Positions 1-43,789 of a stretch of 64,000 nt of DNA are shown one piece after another. Position 1 is the first letter of the stretch. Every line of letters starts with the position of its first letter. The translations under genes were made by a program, and so were the position numbers. Under the pieces are notes generated by a model. It saw only the letters and a program-made list of their open reading frames with translations. It made no database searches and was not told the origin of the DNA. Origin of the DNA: Heterodontus francisci (lineage: Eukaryota); assembly GCF_036365525.1 (NCBI RefSeq), contig NC_090380.1, forward strand, positions 82,221,658 to 82,285,657, in the 5' to 3' direction.

Positions 1-1
1 T

Positions 2-361
2 ACTCCCGTGTCGGGGAATATGAAACACTGCCCTAACATAATATCTTCCTCTATCCTCGTCACAGGTACCTAACGCTCTGTTAGTTAAGGTCAAACTTCT
101 GTTCCCTCTGGTATACCCAATGTCGTTCCCGCGCACGCCAACCCATCCACTCCCGCATAATACAAACTTAAATCTTCTCGCTATCCTTTGTTGGTTCGAA
201 CTATCTTGATCTGCCACACAAAGTTGTTTCTGGCCACGGGATAGTCTTCCCGCGTCGACACTGCGTCAACGTTCATTCGTTGCGATAGCTCCGATGCGGG
301 TTCACCTCTTATCCCATTTTAAGTCCAGTCTCTCCATATCTTGTTCCCAATTTGTTCTGAT
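2..361 (-). pseudogene. Decayed reading frame downstream of ERV-A integrase (probable start of env or an accessory gene), runs off the window
   Basis: One frame reads IRTNWEQDMERLDLKWDKR*TRIGAIATNER*RSVDAGRLSRGQKQLCVADQ...FVLCGSGWVGVRGNDIGYTRGNRSLTLTNRALGTCDEDRGRYYVRAVFHIPRHGS. Both stops are TGA in Arg contexts, consistent with CGA decay. Confidence 0.4.
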
Positions 362-592
362 TCTAGCCGTCCATTTCTCCTAGCCCACTTACTTTCCCTG
401 TTTTCTTTTTCTTTCATTTTTTCCCTCGATTTCCCTCTGTATGTGGACGTACTACTTCAGGTTGTCTTTCAAACACTTCCGCTTGGATCCGCAGTTGATC
501 CTGCTCTTGATCTCCCTGACCTTCGATCGGAACATCGGTAGCATCAAGCATCACATGCCAACTGTGATTATCTTGTTTTTCTCCTACTAACT

Positions 593-3500
593 TTAACTGA
601 TGTGATACCAGCCACTCTTATCTGGTGCCGACAATACTTTGTATACAGATAGACTAGCTTTATCTACTATCTCATAGGGACCGGTGAACTTTGGACTCAA
701 AAATTAGGTGGGCTCGTACATTCTGATCATTACCCTTTGTCCGGGGCTCAACTCTATCGGGCTGGCTTTCGCATCGAAATAAGCCTTACTTTGCTGTCTC
801 TTCTTTCCCTGTTGGTGAGCTGCCACGTAATTTGCTTCCCTCACTGTTTCTACTAATTGTTGTACCCATTTTTCTCGTATAATACTGTCGACCTCGGGTT
901 CGGACTAGTCCAAACCTACCAACCCCTCCATTCCTCTCATGTCCCTTCCCGTCATGAGTTTATAGGGAATTTAACCTGTTGATGAAGCTACGGTATTCCT
1001 GATTACCATCAACACATAGGGCAGAACAACCTGCCAGGTCACCTTGTGCTGCTGAACCATTTTAGCTATCATGTTTTTCAATTTCCGATTCATCCTTTCC
1101 ACAATATGGGCGGCGCAGTGGTTAGCACTGCAGCCTCACAACTCCAGGGACCAGGGTTCGATTCTGGGTACTGCCTGTACGGAGTTTGCAAGTTCTCCCT
1201 GTGTCTGCGTGAGTTTTCGCCAGGTGCTCCGGTTTCCTCCCACAGCCAAAAGACTTGCAGGTGGTAGGTAAATTGGCCGTTGTTAATTGTCCCTAGTGTA
1301 GGTAGATGGTAGGGAACATGGGATTACTGTACGGTTAATATAAATGGGTGGTTGTTGGGCGGCACAGACTTGGTGGGCCGAAGGGCCTGTTTTAGTGCTG
1401 TATCTCTAAATATAAATGTAAAATAAATATAATTCCACTAGACTGGTCTATAGTGTATGTGGAATTTCTGTTTAACCCCAAAGAGGGTCATGACATTTTG
1501 CATTACTTGGGCTGTAAAATGTGTTCCCTGATCTGATTCTATGCTTCAGGGTAAACCCCACCGAGTGAATACCCTTTCTAACAGAATTTTCGTGGTGACT
1601 TTGGCTGTATTTGTTCTGGTTGGGAAAGCTTCCACCCATTTGGTAAACGTATCTACTATTACTAGAATGTATTTAAACCCTCCTGGAGTGGGGGGTAAGG
1701 GTCCTACATAGTCTATCTGTAAATTAGTCCAAGGCCCTTCTACTGGTCTAGTATGTCGGAGGGCCCCTTTCTTGTCATTCCTATCGGGGTTGTGTTGTGC
1801 ACAGATCAAACAATTCTTGACGTAGTGTTCCACGTCGCCTTTCATTCCAGGCCACCAGCACACCTCCTTTATCCTTTCCAGGGTACTCTCTGTCCCTTTA
1901 TGTCCCCATAAGTCATGGTACCAGTGGATTATTTGGTTTCGTCCTGCCTCTGGCACTACAAATTTTCCTTCACATAAAACCACTCCGTCCTGAATATAGA
2001 CGCCCTTGTACTCTTAGTATGTGTCTGACTCTACTCCTTCTATCAGTTTTTTCAATTCTCCATCTTTCTTCTGCTCCTCTGTTAAATCCATTACCTTAAC
2101 CTGTTTCCCCTTCTGTTCCCCAATGTCCTCAATCGGTGGCTGCCATTCCTGCCCACTAACAGCACCTTGTTTGGCTAGCTCATCCGCTTTACTGTTCCCT
2201 TCTGAGTAAGTTTTGAATGAGCTTTTACCTTCGTGATCCCATATCCTTTCCCCTGTGCTCCTTCAAGGATGTATCTTAATAATGGGGCCGATGGAAGGGG
2301 CTTCCCATCTGCTGAGACAAAACCCCTCGCCTCCCATAAGGGCAAATCTTCTGTGAGGCTATTACAGACATACATGCTATCAGAATATATAACTGATCCG
2401 GGCGGGAAGTATTCTGGGTGGCCAACCACATATGCGACGGCTGCTAATTCTGCCACCTGCGCACTCATTGTTTTAGGCAATTTTAAGGCTGCGCTAAACT
2501 TTTCCTGACCATGTTTGTCTTCTACATATATCCCGCACCCAGTCCTCCTCTCACCATCTTGTACTGATGAGGAACCATCCACAAAAATTTTTAAGTGGGG
2601 TTCTTCTTTTTCCTTTTCATCTTTACTTTCTGTCTCCGTTGCTTTCTCCAATGCACTCCTACCCCCTCCTTTTTGTTTTGATACAAATGGTCCCTTGGGA
2701 TCATTTGCTATCATGACTTGACACTCATGTTTCTCTCCTTGATACACTAGGTTGTCTGCCAACATAGTGGTAGTTTTTACTCCTTTCACGCTTATGTTTC
2801 TTCCCTGCAACAATAGTGTCCACCTAACAATTCGGTTCTGACTTACTGACCCATCTTTGATCCTACCGTCTAATAATAACTGTACAGGGGTATGTTCTGT
2901 CAATATTGTAAGTGGGTTCAGTCCCACTATGTAAGTAAAATACTGTACTACCCAAAAAACTGCGAACAAATGTTTCACACATGTCGTATACCCCTGCTCT
3001 ACCGGTGAAAGCATACGCGAGGCATATGCTACTGGTCTCAATTTGCCGTGTGTCTCCTGTAACAGAACTGCTGAGAAGGTGGTGTCTGTGGTAGCTTCTT
3101 CCAATGAAAACGGCTCAGTTGGATTTGGGGTTTGCAGAGCAGGCGCAGCAGCTAGTGCCTGCTTTAAATCTGAAATGGCCTGTGTGTGTTTGGTTTTCCA
3201 CTCCCACACTACATTCTTTTTCAATAGTTCCATTAATGGAGCTGCTTTTGTTGCGAATCCATCAATGTGGTCTCTGCAATATCCCACCAAACCCAGGAAA
3301 GATCTCAACCCTTTTACATCCCTCGGGACAGGGAGTCTGCCAACCGCTACTACCCTTTGTTGGTCAATTTCTCTTTCCCGGTGTCAAGATCATTCCCAAG
3401 TAAGTAACCTTCTGTTTCATAACTTGTGCCTTTTTAGGGTTTACTTTTAGTCCCAATTCGTGTAACAACTGTAGTAATTCACTTAGTAACTGATAATGTT

Positions 3501-4593
3501 CCTGTTCCGTTTCAGTTTGTAGCAGTAAATCGTCTACATTCTGCACCAGACATTCAGGCTTTGAGAACCTTTTTAACCATTCCCTTAAACGTTGGTGAAA
3601 TATAGACGGGGAATTATGAAATCCCTGTGGCAGGGCGGTCCATATATATTGTCCTTGAAAGGTTAACGCAAATTTATATTGGCATTCCTTCTCCAGTGGA
3701 ATAGACCAAAAACCGTTACTTATATCTAAAACAGTGAACCACTGTGCATCCTCATTTTGTTTAACTACCGTCTCTGGGCTAGTTGCTACGGTAGGGGCCG
3801 TTAACGGGATTACCTTATTTAATTCTCGATAGTCTATCGTTCGTCGCCAGCTACCGTCCGGTTTCCTCACCTGCCAAATAGGTGAATTGTTAGTGGAGGC
3901 TACCGGTCTTAGTATCCCTTGTAGCAGCAAACTCTGTATCACCTTTCCCAACTCCTCTTCTGCCTGTTTTGGAAAACCATACTGCTTCTGTGGTTTGAGG
4001 TCTGGGCCCTGTCTACACACACTCCCGGTCATTTTCCCACAATCATGTTTATGTCGAGCAAATACTACTGAATTCCGTGTGATAATTTGTTGTACTTCAC
4101 GATCGCTACTCATTTCTTTTGGTCTTGTCCACAATTCCCCGAACGTGCATATCCTATCCTGGTATTCCCCCACCGGGACGGATGTGTGATCTATACTACC
4201 CATGCCCAAGGGCATTTGCCAAATTGTGCAATTAACAGGGTCAAAACAGAGTCCTGCTTTAGCCATGTAATCACGCCCTAATATTTGTTCTTGTTCTTCT
4301 CTGGGTAACTCAATGAGAACCACGGAGTGCTCTATTGCTACGTCCCCCACACTAACTTCCAGCAGTACGCTCACATATCCCACTTGTGAATGTCCTGTGA
4401 ATCCACGTAAAACAAGTTTACTTTGAATTTCCCAATCTACTTTACTAACATTAGTGGTGTTTACGGTGGTTCGGGATCCTCCAGTGTCCCAAAGGAACGT
4501 GACAGGGCGGCCTCCAACCCTACCATTCACTAGGGGTCTCCCTGTGTTATCCCACCGCGTGTCACATACCCATAATGGAGAGGCCTACGACCG
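593..4593 (-). pseudogene. pol: ERV-A pol (protease, RT, tether, RNase H, integrase with GPY/F tail), disrupted by stops, frameshifts and a SINE
   Basis: PR FLWDTGG; RT LDISNGFWSIPL, WTALPQGFHNSP, NVDD (decayed YVDD); tether RPVAYASR; RNase H IFVDGSS, AQVAELAA, YSDS, KAH; IN HHCC (HDLWGH..CLIC), QIDYVGPLP, ESDQGTHF, IVERMNR (after the SINE), KFTGPYEI. Confidence 0.92.
1108..1428 (+). mobile_element. tRNA-derived V-SINE (HE1-like) inserted into the ERV-A integrase
   Basis: GGCGCAGTGGTTAGCAC A-box, GGTTCGATTC B-box, V-domain GTGCTCCGGTTTCCTCCCACA, CR1-like tail GGGCCGAAGGGCCTGT and AT-rich end; splits the IN motif SSGI|VERMNR. Confidence 0.88.
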
Positions 4594-6143
4594 TCATTGT
4601 GGTTCAGGATACAACCCCAAAGACGGTGCTATCTCTAGTATATCACATTGAGGATTTGACCTATTCGGTCCTTTCATGGGTAGGCTCTGGCGTTTGTTCT
4701 GACCTCCTCCCCGACCTACATTTTCTCGTCTCAGGTTTGGGCATTCTCTTTTGAAATGTCCCTCCTGGCCACAGTTATAGCAATGGGTTGGCCCGCCCGG
4801 AGTTCTCCCTGTTCCTGGGACGGATCCCCTCCCAATGCCTCTACCCCTTCCTCCTGTCTGAAAGGTTGGGTTAGCGTTCTCAGCCATCGGTTTCTAATCT
4901 CTGGCGTTGGATTGGCTCTATCTAGGTTTGCGCCATATACCCCTTGAAACACAGCCCAGATGCGAGCTGCAAACGCAACAGGGTGTTCACCTTTTCTTTG
5001 ATAGCATTTCGTTAGCACCTCCACTGGGTCCCATCTATTAGCGCCCATGACATTTAATGCTTGTTCTTTTAAAGCCTCATTTGTGCCTCTACTGAGTTTT
5101 TGCTCCTCTGGTAGGGCGGAGCGTATGTGTGGGTGTAGGCACATTATAATTAATTTTCTTTCTTCAGCATCATCTAAGCCGTGTATTCCTCTCTGTTGAC
5201 TGACCGCTTGGAACAGCTCCCTAGGATCATCCCCGGGTGCGCACGTCCCAATATCTTTCGCAATATCCCTCAATTGCTGTACCCCCATTGGAGTGGAATA
5301 TGCCATACGCGGGCCAGCTGCCACCTGGCCATCAGCCCCTATCGCTGCCCTAGTGATCACAAGGGGGGCCGATGACTCCTTTGGCTCTGGCTCATATGCG
5401 GGCGGAGGATCCTCGGGTAGAGGGTCTCCATCATCATAGCCGTATCTAGCCGCTTCGTCTGCGAACTCATTCCAATCTATGCCCCCATCACCATTTTCCT
5501 CACTTCCTTTGGGTGCAAAAGCACAGATTATACCTCTCTGCGTGGCTAGCTGGTCTTGCAGTCTCGCTATGTATTTTTGACACTTTGTGTGATAACCTGT
5601 ATTACTTCTCTTTTCCTGAGCTGCTCTCTGAATCACATTCATGGCAGTTTTTAAATCACTACATTGCTGCTTCCATCCTTCCACCTCAGCTTTAGCTGCT
5701 TGGGCTTCTCCCTAACGCCTACTTTTTTCCGTAACTAGTTTTTCACACTGTAACTGATATTGGTTCATATGCATCAAATCCTCACTTCTCTGTCCCTGCA
5801 AATCAGTTACTTTTTCACTAAGGTGGGCTGCCTCCTCACGGAGTTTTTTAATCTCCTCCTCTAGTCTGTTCTGCTCATTTTTAGCCTGCTGTTGGCATTC
5901 TATCCATTCCTCAAGTAAACAGCCGATAGCTACTGACTTCTGTATCTTTTTAAATTTCCTAGCTGACATCTTTGCTTGTGCAGTCTTCCAAAGGGCTTCC
6001 CCTACAGGTTTTCCCTTGTCGCTAGTGTGACCAGCATATTCTCCGTATTGCGGCCACTTCGCTATTACATATTTTTGGAGGAATCCTTTCCAATCAAAAC
6101 AATCCAAGTCTCCAAAGTTTGGAGATTCCCTTTGTTTCATCAT
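4594..6143 (-). pseudogene. gag: ERV-A gag: N-terminal long coiled coil, PPPAYEP proline-rich segment, capsid-like region, Gly/Arg-rich linker and CCHC zinc knuckle
   Basis: ORFs 5712-6143, 4731-5684 and 4594-4887 join across one in-frame stop and one frameshift; CYNCGQEGHFKRECP knuckle; heptad-rich segment QNRLEEEIKKLREEAAHLSEKVTDLQ. Confidence 0.85.
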
Positions 6144-6251
6144 CTTATGTTAGTAGCTACAAATTAACCCCTAAGTTCCTTTCTGTCTGTACTTTGCCAA
6201 TTCGGTTCGACTCGAGTCTCCCGCTGATTCAACAGAGAGATTTATCCTCGA

Positions 6252-6269
6252 GCCCACCAAGGGACGCCA
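6252..6269 (-). promoter_or_regulatory. Primer binding site, tRNA-Asn(GTT)
   Basis: Minus strand TGGCGTCCCTTGGTGGGC(TCGA) vs the complement of the vertebrate tRNA-Asn 3' end, TGGCGTCCCTGGGTGGGC(TCGA): 1 mismatch. Confidence 0.85.
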
Positions 6270-6273
6270 ATTA

Positions 6274-7047
6274 TGTAAACCGTGGCACGGAGTCAACTCC
6301 CCCTGTCCCCTTTATTCCCTGTACCCAGTTGATCCTGGCCGTCACATGGGACTGAAGTCCTCTTAATTCAGGCTGAGGCTGGGTGTTTGGGATATCGGAT
6401 TTCAAGAGAGCCACCCTCCAGCTTAATCCACAGCTACAGTTAATGGCTTAGTACAAAGAGGAGGAACTCAGTCCTTTCTTTAACTATCAATTTACTTTAT
6501 TCACCTTGTTGTACAATGTAAGAATAAGGCTTATACACTTGGTTAGACAAAAGCATGCAATTCAAACTGAGTTATACAGTTAATAACAAAACCAGCTAGA
6601 ATCCATAAGCACACCCACTAGGTTCCTCTGACCTTTCCCTGACTGAGTCACAGAAAACTTAAGGATAATACCCGAAAAAGGGAGAGTTAACGCTGGCCAG
6701 GCGTTCCGTTCTCTCTCTCTCTTCTACATCGTCGCCGCATCGCTCACGCAGGGTCTTCTGCTTCCACGAAGGTTGATCTCCGGAGTTTTCGCTGGCTCTA
6801 TGCCCAAAAAGCTCTATTCTTATCCTGTTGCTTATCTCTCCAAATCTGAGCTGTGTCTTTTCGGTTGGCTTAAGCTTGCTCACCTTGTTCACATCCTCTT
6901 AATTGGCCCAGGCCCAAAGACCCTGGTATCACACTGTGTCCAAATAAGGCCCTTTTCCTGTGATCGATCCTTTGTCTTGTCTCAAAGTAATTAGTTCAAA
7001 CTGGTTTTTACCAGCACAGGCCAGTGTCTGAGCTCCAGCTTACTACA
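6274..7047 (-). repeat. 5' LTR of ERV-A (~774 bp)
   Basis: Minus strand begins TGTAGTAAG (7047) and ends GTTTACA (6274), 4 nt before the PBS. AATAAA occurs on the minus strand near 6311-6316 and 6496-6501. The partner LTR is outside the window, so the outer boundary is inferred from the TG..CA ends and the switch to Gypsy sequence. Confidence 0.7.
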
Positions 7048-7382
7048 GGTCAAACAATCCCAGCAGTTTGTAACTGATTCTGTATTTCTTGCAGCCCCTG
7101 GCCAACACTAACATGTCTGCAACTGAAGGTGGTAGCTCTCCAAGCCAGGGTGAAATAATTCGGGATAAGTTAAAAGCACTGTCTGTGGAAGAGTTGAGGA
7201 AAATGGCTGAGCAGTGTGGGATCACTGTACGTGATGAGGCTAGGAAGTCTGAACTTGCAAGGCTAGGAGGTCTGAACTCCTAAGGCTAGTGGCTAACCAT
7301 TTTTCCCTTAAATCTGAAGAAGCAGAAATAGGGTTAGAAGCAGACCCAGACAGGGTAGTGCTAGCAAAGATACAATTGGAAC

Positions 7383-7782
7383 TGTAAGGGTGAGGGCTTG
7401 CCCTGGTACCCAAAAAACACCTCGAAAGTCAGATGTCTTATTCAAACGAGCAATCTTTATTACGAATATGCAAGAAGTCCTACTCTCATGAATGATCGTA
7501 GGGATTCCACCAGTTCAATGTTTGAGCAATCAATTTATATAGTTACGGGAGGTTTACTTGACAAGCTGTTTTTTTTAATTACATCATCTTCCCATCTTAC
7601 TCTCTTCCCTGATCTCATCTTTCCTTGATCATCCTTCCTCGATCATAGTATTCACTTTGTCAATCTCTTGATTAGGTTACTCATTAGTTCTCTCTGTCTC
7701 ACAGACAAGTTTTTCTCAAGTTTTAACATCTTTGGTTTACGCCAAGTATCCCATGAACCCCATACGCTAGCGTCCCCTTACA
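7383..7782 (-). repeat. 3' LTR of ERV-B
   Basis: TG...CA termini, diverged and ~43 bp shorter copy of 12622-13064; preceded on the minus strand by a decayed PPT AAAAGTGAGGTC. Confidence 0.9.
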
Positions 7783-8074: not shown

Positions 8075-8848
8075 CGTTAAGACCAGTTGAGAAAGGTGTC
8101 TAGGGGTCTGTTGCAGTCTTCACTTGATCTTATTGTAACAGGGTTTTATTTTTAAACACACTGTGTTTTGAGCTTCCAGTTTGTGAATCCTTCTTCACAG
8201 CTTTCCAATTATAAGGCAAAGAAATGAGCATAAACAGGCTTTCTCAGGTTTAAGGAAGGAACGCGAAATTTATTAAGACTTAAACTCTAATATGGTTAAC
8301 GCCTAGGGATATACGATGTGCCCATGCTAGCATTCACACACGATACACGTGAAAATAGGGTCAGAAAAGAGCAGAAGAAAAATAAAGTTAAAAAGTTTGA
8401 GGCAATCTCTGAACAGAGTTTTTTTTACTGTGCTTCAAGCTCGCTGTAATCCTTGATTGCAGGTAGTCTTGCTTTTCGTTGGGGCCCAGTATTCTTCTTA
8501 AATCTTGTTTACTGTAAGAGACTTTTCTCTCTTAGTCTTCAATGGTTTCCGATGCTGGTGTGAACGAAATGAGAGCAGACAGGAGAGAGGTCTTATCAGT
8601 CCAGGAGAAAGGTGCTTTCTGAGTTCACATTTCTTGATGGAAGTTCAAATTCAAAAAACTCCAACAGGCAGTCAGTCAAACTGGTCTGCCCACTTTTTCT
8701 GTGTATTGGGGAAGCAACTGTTCCAGCACTGTTGGTTACTGTGTAAATATCTTTCCAATCAATGGCTTACAATTTTTAAAAAGTTTTAATGTTCATGCAG
8801 CAAAATCATGTGGGCCTCAGTCTTGGCGGGTGGGGGTTTTGCCTGACA
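8075..8848 (-). mobile_element. Solo LTR of the Gmr1-like family inserted inside ERV-B
   Basis: Reverse complement aligns by eye with both ends of 15225-16049; flanked by CTAA/TTAA, a 4-bp TSD with 1 mismatch. Confidence 0.75.
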
Positions 8849-8929
8849 TTAAGTTCTCCTTACTCCATCACTGTTGGCCTGACAGGCAGTTAGATTTGCA
8901 CGGTTACATTTTCTAAATTATGTCAAACA

Positions 8930-9690
8930 TCTCAATTAGGTACCAGGGTATAACATAAATCCGATAACAATTAGTAACTGCTCCGCCACCCGTATATGGG
9001 AAGCAATTCTAAACCGGGGTGAACATCCACCCTAATACCCCAGTCCCAAACCATCTCCCACCACGATGCGTCCTCCAGTTCGGCTACCATATCCTCTCCC
9101 AGTTGTTTGACCTATTGTTGGATTCGGTGATATTGCTTCATTGCTGTCCGGGTCTCTTCCCTCACCTTCCGCAGACGTTCCAGCAGTTTAGGGATTCAGT
9201 TTCCCTCGGGAAGCAGGTATGTCAACAAGACCTCCGTTAGATTGTCGGTTATGTTCATCCACTCCCTAGGGGGAGGCTGGATGTGAGTTATCGCCGAATG
9301 TCCGATTGTTGTTGGGGTCCGGGGGTGGAAGCAGAAACTTGAGTTGATCACTGGGCAGTGGATGTCACTGTACTGGTATCAAGGTTTGCTGGTGGTCACG
9401 CAGTATTCCCATTCTCCACGGTATGCCACCTGCGTCGGTTTATGGCGGGTACTGGAAATTTCAAGGGTACAGTTTAGGGTAATATTAAAACCATGCACGG
9501 TTCTCATCCCTATCCCTATGGGATGTGGACAGACAGCATTATTCCCTACACTCAGCCAGCGAGATCCCGCAAGGAGGGAATCTCTCTGGGTTGCGTATTT
9601 GGGTACGAGGTAGTACTTTGGCCAATTGTTATCTCCCATGATCCCTGTATTTTCTACCCCAAGAAGGGTTTGGATGCCGCTGGTTCTTTA
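8930..9690 (-). pseudogene. env: ERV-B env remnant, class I fusion glycoprotein resembling paramyxovirus/pneumovirus F1
   Basis: GIQTLLGVENTGIMGDNNWPKYYLVPKYATQRDSLLAGSRWLSVGNNAVCPHP..GFNITLNCTLEI..QVAYRGEWEYCVTTSKP*YQYSDIHCPVINSSFCFHP, then heptad repeat LLERLRKVREETRTAMKQYHRIQQ*VKQLGEDM, Trp-rich SWWEMVWDWG and a hydrophobic TM-like segment; several N-x-S/T sequons. Confidence 0.72.
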
Positions 9691-10444
9691 GTGTTTTACT
9701 AGCATGTTGGTTAATTTCAAATCTAATATAAAATTCCATTTAAACATTGCTTTGCTCAATATGATTTAGTAGTCAGCAAACTCATTATAGCTAACAGCTG
9801 TAATTCATTAATAAATACTGACTGGCTCTACACAATTATTCTAGCAATTCAATTTTTTTTAAATTGAGTTACAATTGAATTAGTGAATTCAGCTGTGCAG
9901 TTCAGCCATGAAACTAGCCAATGTTCTCATGTACACTTAATGGAATCCAACAACACCTCTCGTTCAGGATACGAATAAGAACAGATTACCCAAAATGGGC
10001 CAATTCACGTTGGTTAGACAATTTAATAACAAATAATGTGAATAGAACTTAATCCAACATGTACCTGCATACAGATAGAATAGGGGTTATAAAGTTAGAA
10101 CTACAGTGGGTGATACTGACGCTAGATTTATGCATGACTGCTTTAAGTATAAAGGGAACCTTCATTACCACGCTTTGCAACTTCAGGCACTGTTGTTCCC
10201 CATTCCCAACTGCCCTGAGCTGCTCCTTAGGCATACTAGTTTGTTAACCGTGACATTTAACTCCATGTGCCCGATCGCAATTGGCATTGCTCAAGTTCTT
10301 ATAGAACCTGCATTGTTAGGTCCCCCAGTCAACTGACTTGGTTCTTTCCAGGCTTGTGGTTGCCAGACATTTCAGCAGTACTGCGGTTTTCATGGTCCTG
10401 GAAAGAGAACGTCGCGGATGCCAGTCGTCACCAGTTAGTCATTA

Positions 10445-11099: not shown

Positions 11100-11640
11100 T
11101 CACAGTCATTCTTTGATGAGTATTCTGAACTAGCTGATATGTGTCCCCTTTTCTGAGGCCCATAACCCTAGCAACCCAAGTCTTCATTTCATCACAGGTA
11201 CCTCGAGCCCTTCCTCTGGTAGGGCTGAGTAAATCTCGCTCCTGCTCAGCTTCACTACACCTCTGCTTCAATAATCTCTCGTCTGCTTCCCTCTTTTCCC
11301 TTTCCCTTGATATATCTGCACAATGTGCCTTCAGGAACTCCACTTTCCCGGCCCACCAAGCTGTCTCTTCCATATGTCTGGGTCATTCCTCCTCTCGTTT
11401 ATCCCTTTCTTTCTGTAATTGACTCTTTGTCAAGTTAACTATGGCACACCTATCTTCCTTCTCTTTCCTTAATTTACTCAATTCTAACTCCAACTGTCTA
11501 CGCTTTTCCTCCTGCTGCTTACACCTAGCCTGATACACCAACAGCCAGACTGCTTTAATTTATCTGTCTTTACATGTGGACCCCTGCATCTACTGTTCTG
11601 CCTCACCAACAGGGTCATCTGAAATTTGTACAACTTAAAC
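11100..11640 (-). pseudogene. gag: ERV-B gag-like coiled-coil remnant
   Basis: Reads ...KAVWLLVYQARCKQQEEKRRQLELELSKLRKEKEDRCAIVNLTKSQLQKERDKREEE*PRHMEETAWWAGKVEFLKAHCADISREREKREADERLLKQRCSEAEQERD; occupies the gag position after the PBS. Confidence 0.55.
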
Positions 11641-11817: not shown

Positions 11818-12601
11818 GTTTTTCTTCTTTTGTCCTTTCAACAGCATTCTAGATTACTGTGGTATTTCCAATGTAATTTCTACCTATCGTTTCCTGAAAC
11901 TTGTTTCTATCTCTGGACTTGTTTCTGGACTGGCTGTTAATTTGTTTCTGCTTTTGGAAATGTTTGTGGACTCGCCGGCAGAGTCCCATATAATAATTGA
12001 TTCTAATCCGAATTGCTTTATCCTTCAGACTTTTCTTTTGGCCCTTCCACCATGCTCTTTGCACTTCTGGGGTGGGGGGTGTCATTAGATTTCTACCCAT
12101 CCTTTTTCATTTTACTGGTCAAGTTCTCATCTGCTATAAACCTGGTAAGGAAGTCCCCAATCTAGACCTTCTGCACTATTGGTCATTCTGGCAGGGTGTG
12201 GTCTGCCCAAGTGGTATTGACCTACAGGATACGCTTTAAATCCCCTGCTCAGCTCGACCTTTTGTGAAGGTCTGCTTTGCGGTCTCTCTCAACGTGGTCT
12301 CCTGCACGGTAACGGCCTTCAGGATACCTCAAAATTCCTTGCACGCCGTCACCTGCTATGTGGTTCTGTGTTGCGACTTTCTCAGCGCAGCCTTCTGCCC
12401 GGTTCTCTCGACTCGTGACCCACTATCCTGGCACGCGCTTTGATCGCTTGGCACTCGAGTCTCCAGGCTTTGGTTTTTTGATACCCATTTAAAGTACCAG
12501 TCCCACGACTGTGAGGTAGACCTTTCCTAACTATGGATGGTAAAATAAAAGGTACTCACCCCTTGGTTGGTCTCCTCACTGTTGCAGACCCGATGTGGTG
12601 T

Positions 12602-12619
12602 ATCCTGCCGACTACCCCA
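12602..12619 (-). promoter_or_regulatory. Primer binding site, tRNA-Ser
   Basis: Minus strand TGGGGTAGTCGGCAGGAT vs the complement of the vertebrate tRNA-Ser(AGA/TGA) 3' end, TGGCGTAGTCGGCAGGAT: 1 mismatch, 2 nt from the LTR. Confidence 0.85.
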
Positions 12620-12621
12620 AA

Positions 12622-13064
12622 TGTGAGGGTGGGACTTGCCCTGGATCCAAAAACACCTCGAGTCGGATGTCTTGTTCAAACGAGTGATCTTTATTACAAG
12701 CATGCAAGGAGAAGTCCTATTCTCATGAATGATCATAGGGATTCTACTAGTACAATGTTTGAGCAGTCAATTTATACAATTATGGGAGGTTTACTTGACA
12801 AGCTGTTTTTTTAATTACATCATATTTCCATCTTACTCTCTTCCCTGATCTCATCTTTCCTTGATCATCCTTCCTTGATCATATTATTCACCTCGTCAAC
12901 CTCTTGATTAGGTTATTCATGTGATTCCCTCTGACCTTGTCTACCTCTTGATTAGATGATTCATTTGGTTCTCTGTATCTCACAGACAAACTTTTCTCAA
13001 GGTTCAGTATCTTTGGTTTTACGCCAAGTATCCCATGATCCCCATACGCCAGCCTCCCCTTACA
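12622..13064 (-). repeat. 5' LTR of ERV-B
   Basis: TG...CA termini, direct repeat of 7383-7782, adjacent to the PBS. Confidence 0.9.
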
Positions 13065-15224
13065 GAACAAAGGAAACTTGAATTAGAGGAAAAAGAGAGA
13101 GAGGCAGGAGAGGGAGAAAGGGAGAGCCTTCCAGAAGGAATGTGAAGAAAGAAAAAGACAGGAGAGAGGAAGAACCTTCCAGAAAGATTGCGAAGAAAGA
13201 GAGCTAAGGCACCTTGAGTTAACTGTGGTGGTGGGGGGGGGGGTGGCGCGACAGAGTAACCCCAGTGAAAATACGGAGGAACATAATTTAGGGCTGGGTA
13301 CAGAATTGTTAAAACTAGCTCATCTAATCCCAAAATTCAACGAGGAAGATGTGGAGGAATACTTTGTGTCTTCTGAGAAACTGGCAAGGCAGCTAAAATG
13401 CCTAGCTGAGACCTGGTCTCTTTTACTACAAAGCAAGCTAATTGGAAAAGTCCATGAGGTTGACTTGCTGTTGCCAGATGAGAGTTCATCAATGAACTGA
13501 CCAAAAATGCTATCCTCAGGGCATATGAATTAGAACCCTTAAGAAACAAGCTAATCAAACTCATTTGGAGTTTGAAAGAAGTAAGCAGCTGGCCTGTGGC
13601 TGAGGGCTGTTAAAGTACAGCTCAGCTTTGAGAATCAGGGAAGTAGTTCTGTTAGAGGAATTTAAAAACTCCCACTCTCCATAAAGACCCATGTGGAGGA
13701 GCAGTGGGTTCAGGAGCCCAGCAAGCAGCCGTTCTGTCTGATGAGTTTGCTGGGCTCCTGAACCCACTGCTCCTCTACATGGGTCCCTAGTTTGCCTGTG
13801 GACAGGGTTGACCTGCTCCTAGGTAATGATCTGGTGGGGGTGAAAGTGGTAGCCCCCTCAGTTGTGAAAGAAAGACCACAGGAGGTCAGACAGACAGGGC
13901 AGTGGCAGGAGGTGGTCCCCTGAAGTTTCCCTGAATGTGTAGTGGATCAGGCCATGTTCAAACAAGCTCCCCCAGTGGAGACTGCATTGGTACTGCACGC
14001 AAATGACCATGAGGTCTGACTGTCCGAGATCTTCTTTGGAAAATTAGAAGACAAAGGGAATGAATTAAATGGATTATTCCTAGCTGAGGCTCAGTGAGCC
14101 GACCCAGTCTTGTGAGAGATAGCACAGGCTGCCGAGTCTGAAAGTGAAGCAGAGGGAGTCCCTGATTGCTATTATTTAAAGAATGAGGTACTGATGAGGA
14201 AATGGAGTTCTCCCCACAGACCTGCGGGCAAGGAGTAGATAGTAGTTCACCAGTCAGTGGTGCCGCAGAGATACCGGGGAGAGATATTAAGAAGGGCCCA
14301 CGAGACTACAGTGGCTGCACATGCTGGTATACGAAAGACCAAAGCCCGCATAAGACAGCAGTTTGACTGGCCAAAACTCCACAAAGATGTGGTGAAGCAC
14401 TGCAGGAGTTGCCACATATGCCAGGTTGAGGGGAAACACCAACCTACGGAGAAACCAGCACCCCTAAGCTCTGTACCTGTGTTAAGATGAGCCTCTAGCA
14501 GGGGGCTGCTGAACTGTAAGGGATCCCTGCCAAGAACAAAAAGAACAGGCAGGCACAAGGCTGGCAAAAGTTTAGAAAGGGAAGGGGGAGAAAATGACCA
14601 AAAGGGCAGGTTAAAGGAAGTGCGGGAGGACTCCCAGATGAAAACCCCTACTGTCCAGTCCAGTCCGAAAAATGTGAAAAGTTAGACCCCACATCCTGCG
14701 ATGTAAATGCAGACTCTAGAAGCACGCCACCAGAGTTGCTAATAGCATTTACAAGAACGTGCAGAGACAAAGAAAGACCTCTAGCAGGCAGAGAAACCGT
14801 GAGGGTGATGCCTCACCTAGTCGAAGTGTCGCAGGGGAGATCAGTAGAGCCTGCACAAATACCTGCAGGCAGGAGTGTCCCAGAGAACAAAAGGAGATTA
14901 ACAAAGAATCTTCCCCCCACAGTCAGAACCAAAGAGAAACTACCTATCCTCCTTTTCAGACCTCAACAGGAACAAAGATGCTCGTCAGCCATGGAAATGG
15001 GCAAACTGAAGAAAAACTTCCCCAAAGAACCACATAGTTACTGGGGTGCCAAAAAGGGGAAATTAAAGCAGCACTGTCACCTAGAAAAGGCAGTTTTAGT
15101 AAGTTTTAGGATTCATGGATGAATGAGAGAAATGCATGGTTTTTCTGTATCTTACATTTTTCTCAACCCTTTTAATGAAATGCACCTTTTCACAAATCGC
15201 ATTTCATTCCTCTGGGTGTGGAGG

Positions 15225-30730: not shown

Positions 30731-31334
30731 CTAGGTAAATATAACCTATGATAGAGGCAAATACTGATGAAATCCTAGAAACTGAATATTAACAAAACAA
30801 ATTCAAACAATAAGATTCTATATTGGGTAAAAACAAAACAAAAAATCAGCTCAGTCTGGTACCATTCTTCGCACTGATCCAAAAAATTACATAATTTATT
30901 TTCTCACCTATTTCCTCTTCTCCAGGTCACTCACTAACACTATGCTCTCGGTACAGTGGCAACAAATGACCTGAAAGGTAAGGAGACTTACTTTGGCCTT
31001 TCACACTGCCCTTTCTTTCAAGTAGCTGGGTTCAAATGCAGCACAGACTGATGGAAAGAAAGTCGTTCCTCAATCTGCCTGTTGTAATAGTTGTACCCAA
31101 AATCAATTTAGATAGTCACTACCTAGTTCCTAGTGGGCCTGGATCTAAGGCACAAAACTGTCCACAAATTGCACTCTGACCCAAGTGGTTATAAGGATGG
31201 TAGCTATATGAAATTACATTTTTTAAAACCTGAAACTCTCATATTACAAAACACAAATGCCTTAGTTCAATCAAAGATTAAACTATAATTTATCAAATTT
31301 AAATCTTTAACCACACAAATTACTGGGAGCTTAC

Positions 31335-31646
31335 CTATTTTTAAAATGTGGGTGAATACTTGCAGTGTATCTTTGGTTCTGATTTCACAGATATATTCTC
31401 CTGCATTTTCCAAAGTTACATGATGCAGGACAAGTGATGAAGAAGTCTGTTTTTTCAATATTTCTGATTGATTCTTCATACAATTTGAGTGTACATTTTC
31501 ATATTGGTGTATTGATTCACAGATTATCTCCAAAGGAGAGGTTTCTGTTTTTCTGAACTTCCACAAAATTGCCAAATTTTGATCATTCTTGGAGGAATAG
31601 TTTGAAGTAATTACTATGGTTTCACTCTTGTTTTCTTTTTGTTTGC
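31335..31646 (-). CDS. HHLA2: HHLA2-like exon, second IgV domain
   Basis: TTTCAG acceptor and GTAAGC donor, phase 1-1, 312 nt; LAILWKF, SSSLVLHHVTLENAGEYICEIRT. Confidence 0.85.
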
Positions 31647-33089
31647 CTGAAAATAAAATAAAATAAAAATATTTAACGTATAGCATAAAACATGATACAT
31701 TATTTTACTTTTCCCATTTTGGGTATTCAGTTTCATTATCCCAAATAAAGATTGAAAACTCAGCGCAATCTTACAGGAAACAAGGGAAAGAGGGGTACAG
31801 TCTCAATGTGGGAAAAAGCACATTTTCTGGTATACATACATGGCTGATCTTACCGTACGAGCAATGATTAAATATATCCAAATCCAATAAACTTGACCTA
31901 TTCAGGTTCAAGCCATTTAGGTGTTGTGGACGTGTACCAAGTATCTATATTACTTGGATTTGGTACATGTCCAAAAAGGGTTGGGGAAGTAAACCTCCTA
32001 CAATGGGCCTTAAAGTCCTCCAGAGACTTAAAGACACACAGTTTCTTTGGAAGTTCATCAAGGTGTCTGGTAGTATTTCAGGATGATGCCAGTATTAAAT
32101 CTTGCTGCAGGAAGTGAATCCTGGGAAGGCTGTAGTATTTCACTAACTGCATGGTGTGGAGAGCATTGTAGGAGGTGACAAACAACATTAATGTCAGCAA
32201 CACTGTCCAGATGGGGGCAGCAATGCCCCCAGGAGGGTCAAAGTAGAAACCAGCAACATCAGATCATTTTAATGCACCATGCCAATCATAAACTTTTCTT
32301 TCTTGCTTTCTTTCCATCTTTTTATGGGTACCTGTGACACTGCATGGTGCACTATCAGCACCTTCCTCACCCAGTAGCACCTCTTTCAGTAAAAAGCTGC
32401 AGAGGACAAACAACAGTCAACTCCTTCGATGACTAGCACCTGCACGCTGCACATTTTGTACTTCACAATACCTACACAGCCTACCCTGGCATATAGGTGT
32501 AGAGAGATGCCATGCTATCAATAGCAGTTAGGCAGTGCATGCTTCTGCATTTAAAGGAGAAGGCAGCAAATAACAAGAGAGAGAGGGTGAATAACACAGG
32601 TGGCCCAGCCACCATTCATTCTTTGAAACCACAAATCCAAGATGGAACTTAGAGGAGGCGGCAGCAGATGGAGTATAAAAAAGCAGGGCCTGCTGTAGGA
32701 TTCGTATAACACTTAAAAAGGTAAACTACAAATGCTATAAACCCAACAAAAAAAGCAGAAAATGCTGAAATTACACAACAGGCCAGTCAACAACTGGAAC
32801 GTGAAAAGACCTATTGGGTGAAATCTTACTGCCTTTAAAGATGTTCAGAGGTCGGGACCAAAAACGGGTCCTGACTCCACTGGTGATGCCTGGCCTCCCG
32901 TCTGCGCCATCTTACTGGAGGCAGCCAATTAAGGGGCTGCATCCAGGAGCGCTGACCAATTAAGGATGATGGGCAGAACAGGCACCTGTTTGGGCCAGTG
33001 GGAGGGCCCACAGATTTGTCCTGCTGGCAGCCTCACTGGGAGAGGTGGGCACTGATGTGGCAGGCTGGAGAATGTGATGGTGCCTCAAG

Positions 33090-43195: not shown

Positions 43196-43253
43196 ACATC
43201 ACAACTCAATTCACAGAAAATTCCTTTTCAATGTTAAATAACAAATTTCTGAC

Positions 43254-43580
43254 CAGCCACTTGTAGCAAGACATTTATTTCTCGTTTCCCCTCTGAAGTA
43301 CTGGTGTAACATTGGTACTCTCCTTCATCATCCTTGGTAATGCCTGTAAGCAGGAGGGATGCATTTCCTTTCATTATCTCATTGATGAAAATCTCAGTTC
43401 TTCCTTTGTAGTTTGGATCTTGTTTGGATAGCTGGTCTATTTCTCGATAAAAGCTGTGAACTACAATGGTCCCCTTGGGCAGCTTGCGCATCCAGTGAAG
43501 CACTATTTCAGACAATTTTGTTGGTCGAAATTGACATGGCAAAAAAATGTCCTTGGAAATTACACCTGTGATGCTCCCAT
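43254..43580 (-). CDS. HHLA2: HHLA2-like exon, first IgV domain
   Basis: TTCTTTTCAG acceptor and GTCAGA donor, phase 1-1, 327 nt; DIFLPCQF..VLHW..VVHSFYREIDQLSKQDPNYKGRTEIFINEIMKGNASLLL..DEGEYQCY, a typical B7/butyrophilin IgV. Confidence 0.92.
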
Positions 43581-43789
43581 CTGAAAAGAAACAGAGCAAA
43601 ATTAGTCTTTTCTGGTAAAAAAAAAAAGCTTTTGACATTTCTGATCCAATTCCCAAGTTTCAAATACCAGCCAATGCCTCTTCACCATGCGCTGAAGGAT
43701 CACCAGCAATAATTATGTACAGAATGGACCATTATTGTGGGGGGTAATAAACACACTGGCAAAATAGGGGGTCTATGCCTCTAAATACT

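Follow-up and report, generated by a model that had tools for sequence, protein, structure and literature searches.

A dead, pol-less env remnant in the shark Heterodontus francisci and the likely pairing of an F-type Env with a non-lokiretroviral pol in its parents

Lokiretroviruses are a group defined by the phylogeny of the reverse transcriptase (RT) (Wang & Han, PMC7947760). The relatives of the shark element reported here resemble them in carrying an F-like Env with an R-x-K-R site, a fusion peptide, a coiled coil and a transmembrane (TM) segment. It is established that F proteins fuse membranes after cleavage at a basic site and through refolding of the heptad repeats HR1 and HR2 (PMC11468914). 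The preliminary description of our locus treated an F-like Env as the signature of lokiretroviruses, which cannot be upheld, because the Env proteins of foamy viruses (PMC11468914) and of errantiviruses (bioRxiv 2023.10.26.564294) share the F fold. With paramyxovirus and pneumovirus F and foamy Env (class Ib, PMC11468914) the shark Env has in common the predicted domain order and the best Foldseek matches; it differs from them in belonging to an LTR element with a canonical-type pol, and the copy found here is truncated and broken. Errantiviruses and baculovirus F offer a further parallel, an F-type Env on an LTR retroelement, but errantiviruses are Ty3/gypsy elements of invertebrates (bioRxiv 10.1101/2023.10.26.564294), whereas the shark RTs lie far from gypsy.

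The closest named RT reference by identity, both to the A-type and to the C-type shark RTs distinguished below, is snakehead retrovirus (SnRV). Its pol, which we recognised in protein P0045 from the supplement of PMC7947760, is 44% identical to C-type and 49% identical to A-type RT, as compared to 36-37% for lokiretroviruses and 37-42% for gamma-like pol; the RT motifs are the same and the host is again a fish. Nevertheless, the shark RTs form no supported clade with SnRV (14.6/37), and the position of SnRV in the tree between A- and C-type is without support. SnRV-related ERVs are known in the elephant shark (CmiERV lineage I, clade Huo; PMC4422223, PMC6001957, PMC12193657), and we found no paper terming the SnRV Env F-like. 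Class I ERVs share with the shark elements the class I-type RNase H, the C-type RT as sister and the 4-bp target duplication, which is typical of ERV1 (PMC4299795, Table 1). In contrast to class I ERVs, the shark RT is not nested in the gamma/epsilon-like clade and the env lacks CX6CC, ISD and TLV_coat.

The host provirus and its env remnant

The window, i.e., the whole stretch of 64,000 nucleotides that was analysed, harbors on its minus strand an LTR element that we call element B. Its features, in window coordinates, are as follows.

13064 to 7383, minus strand: element B, a dead and deleted LTR element of 5.7 kb
12622..13064, minus strand: 5' LTR with TG...CA ends
12602..12619, minus strand: primer binding site (PBS) for tRNA-Ser(AGA), with one mismatch in the window copy
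12018..12601, minus strand: leader, 72-81% identical in DNA to L070/L071, which carry a non-loki RT
11100..11640, minus strand: broken N-terminal piece of gag with a coiled-coil-like stretch, weakly matching the gag region of L024
10440..10640, minus strand: C-terminal tail of integrase (IN) with no catalytic core, 67-72% identical in amino acids to L052, L063 and L064
10214..10394, minus strand: truncated start of env of about 60 codons, a putative signal-peptide region, by homology to L052/L064
9690..10214, no strand: AT-rich non-coding stretch of about 520 nt, in the place of the central env part where furin site, fusion peptide and HR1 would lie
8954..9681, minus strand: 3' half of env, with predicted Cys-rich beta domains, HR2, Trp-rich membrane-proximal segment and TM
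8076..8850, minus strand: later insertion that contains an LTR-like piece of another family, missing from other B copies
7383..7782, minus strand: 3' LTR with TG...CA ends, directly next to the GTTC duplication
7379-7382 and 13065-13068: the 4-bp target duplication GTTC flanking element B

The anatomy of the LTRs, the PBS and the target duplication confirmed the presence of a minus-strand env remnant inside an LTR-bounded, PBS-bearing provirus and downstream of an integrase tail, as previously described. The two LTRs differ by a K2P distance of 0.112 (400 sites). The PBS pairs with the 3' end of the host tRNA-Ser(AGA), the complement is carried by the host tRNA-Ser genes, and in the copies L028 and L037 the match is exact. 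The gag piece is 52% identical over 31 amino acids to the gag region of L024 (E 1e-4). DNA homology to L052/L064 stops at 10214-10233, where the AT-rich stretch begins; this stretch has 35% GC and stops in all six frames, and it is found in all 16 other B copies examined. No source of it was found among 40 scored genome matches, which include many known B copies. The insertion is absent from the other B copies, which jump from 8850 to 8074, and 8076-8620 is 78% identical to the inverted segment 15489-16048.

The Cys-spaced domain, the heptad stretch, the Trp-rich segment and the peptide quoted in the preliminary description were all found, in minus frame 0 between 9620 and 9030. Stops interrupt this frame at 9381, 9198 and 9114, with a fourth just upstream at 9690. 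The hydrophobic TM segment, also expected, does exist, but a frameshift near 9020 moves it to another frame. The env piece is not a chance open reading frame, since further proviruses of this genome have an env that matches it with up to 58% amino acid identity (E 8e-69) and 79-81% DNA identity. By analogy, it would correspond to the Cys-rich beta domains, HR2, membrane-proximal segment and TM of an F-type Env. It is the C-terminal half alone, the furin site, fusion peptide and HR1 being deleted; because of this deletion of the fusion peptide and HR1 and because the frame is broken, the piece cannot fuse membranes.

Element B is one of at least about 150 copies that make up its family. In the 6.0-Gb genome the DNA search gave 39 other B-like loci at 86-89% identity among the 40 of 190 candidates that were scored, which is a lower bound, and the protein search gave at least 153 matches, most of them above 60% identity, with 150 of 3327 candidates scored. 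We examined the window copy and 16 others in 10-kb stretches (n=17). All 17 retain the 3' half of env, and none has inside the element a protease, RT, RNase H, IN core or fusion-peptide region; these shared deletions mark element B as a stereotyped non-autonomous family. An IN-core match in L042 sits in the flank outside the element and was rejected as part of a B copy. The search for intact copies that had been advised thus came out negative, with 0 of the 17 examined copies intact. The family kept its LTRs, PBS and leader, and on these grounds it could have been copied in trans by helper proviruses, using their proteins, with the env remnant as a probable passenger.

Several other elements surround the locus. 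Between 7107 and 16048 of the window, element B is nested in a Gypsy-like plus-strand gag, which runs from 13087 onward and resumes at 7170-7382; the 5' LTR of a second provirus, element A, abuts the same Gypsy-like element, and the LTR-like piece of another family lies inside B at 8076-8620. Element A (window 1-7107, minus strand, and L023:8152-10000) is a full-length, younger provirus with gag, pol and env, an LTR distance (K2P) of 0.027 and its own 4-bp target duplication, TTAG. Its PBS presumably resembles tRNA-Asn. A shared LTR of elements A and B was considered and rejected, as each has its own pair. Further along the window, the minus-strand open reading frames at 31267-31704 and 43234-43659 look by eye like Ig V-type exons, which may be those of a host B7/butyrophilin-like gene.

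Fold type of the Env in fuller relatives

The F resemblance is undetectable from the env piece of the window alone. The piece has no PF00523 match in Pfam at E<=1 and no F chain among PDB sequences at E<=10, so that the profile check failed with it, and its score against lokiretrovirus Env is not above that of shuffles. In Foldseek, the ten best rows for its AlphaFold model (mean pLDDT 57.0) are all foamy Env or the F proteins of hMPV, Nipah, PIV5, Hendra and Mojiang virus, though at E>=0.66, the best row being post-fusion foamy Env at E 0.66. The reading of the env as F-like stands at the level of the family, through fuller relatives, and the structural check likewise gave a positive answer with the relative L054, from a low-confidence model.

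In L054, L045, L055 and L024 an R-x-K-R site, a fusion-peptide-like segment and heptads (HR1) precede the part that is kept in element B. The ectodomain of L054 was modelled with low confidence (mean pLDDT 41.6); its ten best Foldseek matches in the PDB are all post-fusion F structures of hMPV, RSV and measles virus, with E values of 2.4e-4 for hMPV F, 1.3e-3 for RSV F and 2.3e-3 for measles F, as compared to 0.012 for foamy Env. The TM-scores of the matches to the L054 and env-piece models are 0.1-0.2. In the Atlas the L054 ectodomain fell to Baculo_F (best cluster) and Fusion_gly clusters at 0.91-0.95 with a weak recognition of 1588, and four of its six phmmer matches are henipavirus F proteins (E 0.19-0.25). 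L051, the closest relative, gave a weak PF00523 match (E 0.039, residues 70-144 against profile positions 250-323). This match spans the quoted peptide, for which equivalence with measles F1 had been proposed; residue by residue that equivalence was not confirmed.

The comparison with lokiretroviruses relied on three lokiretrovirus-type elements, L086-L088, taken from metagenome contigs; two of them have long gag, pol and env open reading frames, and the contigs are probably host fish DNA. Two of the three elements have an Env that matches PF00523, with E 1.2e-5 and 2.2e-3. The shark env family aligns collinearly with one of the lokiretrovirus Envs over 358 columns at 20% identity (E 4e-4), and its HMM scores the two Envs at 12.1 and 9.7 bits, while the maximum of 300 shuffles is 1.8. 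A kinship of the env with lokiretrovirus Env is supported by this alignment. Sequence identity to F proteins of PF00523 and to foamy Env is 10-13%.

One could argue that the env is a divergent orthoretroviral Env that is not homologous to F, and that the length of the heptads together with a beta sandwich of generic type produces the F matches. The 249-aa L051 fragment was indeed assigned by the Atlas to TLV_coat and Avian_gp85 clusters (0.94-0.96), at a very low recognition (797). PF00523 is absent from 13 of the 14 relatives' proteins scanned, 12 of them env; L051 has no PDB match at E<=10, the family profiles A1 and A2 find no F chain in the PDB at E<=1, and a Foldseek search of BFVD returned nothing at E<=0.001. 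The structure models are poor, and the wide VIA structure searches gave generic helices or Ig/FN3 folds with Z<=5.2, which is uninformative on F. However, CX6CC, CX7CC and ISD-like motifs are absent from all nine env family sequences tested, in agreement with what had been reported for CX6CC and ISD in the env piece, and no Pfam match to TLV_coat (PF00429) was found in P0001 or in the 14 relatives' proteins. The post-cleavage part of the Env is about 400 aa long and has beta domains between the heptads, unlike a gamma-type TM. Additionally, F and foamy Env rank first in Foldseek for both models, and the alignment to lokiretrovirus Env is collinear. We therefore consider a non-F Env unlikely and the F-type homology of the env family highly probable; the parent env was most likely F-type (class Ib) and not gamma-type. 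By analogy with F proteins, the parent Env would have been cleaved at R-x-K-R, exposing the adjacent fusion peptide, and its HR1 and HR2 would have refolded into a six-helix bundle that drives fusion.

A search of the whole genome with PF00523 returned nothing besides the microsatellite L021/L022, and its stricter first pass means that this is no evidence of absence. L021/L022 (G000:C32:47361130-47366745) was rejected as an F protein: it is a 21-bp tandem repeat whose translation is an unbroken perfect heptad, which takes it over the PF00523 cut-off as a false positive. IMG/VR gave no usable retroviral references.

Placement of the pol genes

Element B has no RT and must be placed via its parts. 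In DNA, its IN tail and env share 79-81% identity with L052, L063 and L064, and 74-78% with L068. These loci keep IN, and L063/L064 also RNase H; none has an RT within the stretches examined, so the RT placement of element B is one step removed. L070 and L071, both of which bear an RT, share 72-81% identity with the LTR and leader of element B. Element B is probably a mosaic: an L070/L071-like virus would have supplied its LTR and leader, and an L052/L064-like virus its env and IN tail. L069, considered as a B copy with RT, was not taken as the source of an RT for element B: its RT and gag are those of another family, with 74-81% DNA identity to L076/L081, and the 10 kb examined contain no B LTR upstream. 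L076 itself is identical over 959 residues to P0015, a protein labelled Heterodontus francisci, and this shows the host to be a shark.

The FastTree RT tree included 23 loci and 42 of 127 database pol proteins, and 45 of these 65 rows entered the IQ-TREE analysis, the dropped rows being mostly near-duplicates. The RT segments are single tblastn or blastp segments; the RNase H and IN trees have 41 rows each. All three trees were built without foamy, ERV-L and betaretrovirus sequences, and the gamma/epsilon labels come from Pfam gag domains and hosts.

In the RT tree the lokiretroviruses form a clade (99.9/100) from which the shark elements are excluded. The shark RTs fall into two groups outside it, the A-type, together with frog and coelacanth elements, and the C-type, which includes L070/L071, L044/L045 and L082. 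The pols of frog, coelacanth, eel and minnow elements (P0035, P0051, P0133, P0021, P0016) group with these two types. The C-type is sister to class I-like sequences (93.8/83) and lies outside the gamma/epsilon-like clade, which is supported at 99.6/100 without shark elements; the whole non-loki, i.e., canonical-retrovirus, clade has a support of just 68.7/85. In AU tests, with p-values from fuller searches of the constrained trees, a grouping of lokiretroviruses with the C-type (p=2.9e-5) and with the A-type (p=0.025) was rejected. The env and IN donors of element B belong to the C-type clade and stand apart from lokiretroviruses, by RNase H for L063/L064 (UFBoot 97) and by IN for L052/L063 (UFBoot 95), in an IN tree whose deep nodes are weak. 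The L063/L064 RNase H groups with C-type, class I-like and SnRV sequences (UFBoot 95-97), and C-type RNase H is 24-26% identical to that of lokiretroviruses.

These results bear on the proposal that element B is lokiretrovirus-like, which would make it the first lokiretrovirus in a cartilaginous fish. Its Env is homologous to lokiretrovirus Env, and with no RT of its own element B cannot be placed directly. Its relatives also resemble lokiretroviruses in having a tether plus RNase H (PF17919 and PF00075, found in L044 and element A). Both domains are common to all retroviruses and hence not diagnostic. Some lokiretroviruses have an smc-like coiled-coil gene; coiled-coil-like gag stretches occur in elements B and A, the one of element A being long, and the gag pieces of element A have no SMC match. 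The RNase H and IN of element A group near lokiretroviruses, with the frog and coelacanth elements (UFBoot 98 and 85), while its RT lies outside (AU p=0.025); on account of this discrepancy element A may be an intermediate or mosaic lineage. Its env is homologous to that of element B at 22% identity (E 6e-10).

Contrastingly, all three pol regions placed for the relatives of B (RT, RNase H and IN) lie outside the lokiretrovirus clade, the lokiretroviral RT signature is absent and the host is a shark. The RT phylogeny that had been advised thus contradicts the proposal, and it does not nest the relatives in the gamma/epsilon-like clade either. A lokiretrovirus RT query reached a best identity of 42% in this genome, and no lokiretrovirus RT was found among the 150 scored of 16,378 candidates, whereas lokiretrovirus RTs are 70-93% identical to each other; the supposed gap in the host range is accordingly not filled by this genome. 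Taking the asterisk as the mark of a positive, none of six chondrichthyan genomes screened is marked in PMC7947760, and one of them, Chiloscyllium punctatum, has the env family. The lokiretrovirus reading of element B is largely refuted, and we consider it very improbable.

Parents that were foamy-like (spuma) ERVs would also have had an Env with a known F fold. Besides heading the Foldseek rows for the window piece (post-fusion, E 0.66), foamy Env ranks second by VIA for L054 (Z 5.1, rmsd 2.5, 51 aligned), and in the PDB comparison the RT core of element A scores 146 bits against foamy and 113 against MLV. The C-type differs: its RT core scores 148 bits against MLV and 140 against foamy, and its RT-RNase H region 389 bits against gammaretroviral RT and 199 against foamy. 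By eye, the RT motifs are SnRV-like and not like the foamy or fish foamy-like rows in the supplement of PMC7947760. The C-type gag has a CCHC knuckle, and the Env is without a large inserted receptor-binding domain between its subunits. We regard foamy-like parents as very unlikely.

The explanation that we prefer, and which we regard as probable, is that the locus preserves the 3' half of a dead env, within a pol-less multi-copy ERV whose parents likely combined a paramyxovirus-F-type fusogen with a non-loki pol. Of the 10-kb loci with an RT match, 12 out of 15 of the C-type and 6 out of 7 of the A-type have this env on the same strand downstream of the RT, a fraction that is not a genome-wide rate, as the loci were picked by similarity to IN, env or RT. 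Families with F-type Env continued to insert long after B (K2P 0.112), since related proviruses (L043, L054, L057, L058 and L053) have LTR pairs that are 96-99% identical. Dozens of nearly identical matches to ERV IN/RT lie in clusters on G000:C40 (22-40 Mb) and on G000:C2 (224.7-225.1 Mb), which suggests segmental or tandem proviral amplification.

Origin of the F-type Env

The loki papers put forward four scenarios for the origin of retroviral Env (PMC7947760, PMC9040795), and PMC9040795 prefers independent acquisition, as canonical and lokiretrovirus Env had no detectable similarity. The shark proviruses join a canonical-type RT, RNase H and IN with an F-type Env that is homologous to that of lokiretroviruses, and thereby this premise is removed for at least two lineages. 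It could be that the F-type Env is the ancestral retroviral envelope, kept in lokiretroviruses, foamy viruses and basal canonical shark lineages, of which one is the sister of class I ERVs, and that gamma- and beta-type Envs are later replacements; we put this forward tentatively, and lean against it rather than for it. If true, it would favour scenario 1 or 3 (Wang & Han 2020) over independent acquisition (PMC9040795).

Alternatively, these shark viruses acquired the F-type env through recombination with a loki-like virus or another donor bearing F, and it says little on the ancestral Env. This differs from our preferred explanation in history alone, and we give it a serious, somewhat less than even, chance. 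The env of the A-type RT loci L055/L056/L074 groups with that of the C-type loci L070/L071/L081 (UFBoot 84), a pairing that suggests env exchange between deep pol lineages, and L069 joins a B env to the RT of another family; env-pol exchange is described as frequent in anamniotes (bioRxiv 2021.11.23.469661). Because of such exchange between lineages, lateral acquisition is as likely as ancestry. On the other hand, the shark Env is about 20% identical to lokiretrovirus Env, and the env accompanies two deep RT lineages and is spread over four genera of sharks, so that any transfer would be very old. The env-family search gave 11 matches among 6868 candidates, and the 10 with a species label are all from sharks. 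In the env tree the branch of family C is implausibly long, probably through misalignment, and for this reason we used well-supported groups only. In family C (L045:6959-7450, L047) the env is extended at its N terminus by about 170 residues, a Cys-rich region that precedes the segment alignable with lokiretrovirus Env.

Taken by itself, the locus is an unremarkable dead copy of a non-autonomous element. What is new here is the F-type Env on a pol that is neither loki nor gamma; our search, which mostly left out subscription journals and did not cover bioRxiv supplements, found no report of such a combination. A lokiretrovirus cannot be called from an F-like Env. The shark proviruses make the question of Env origin testable by RT-versus-Env trees, and F-type fusion proteins likely occur in more retroviruses than has been published.
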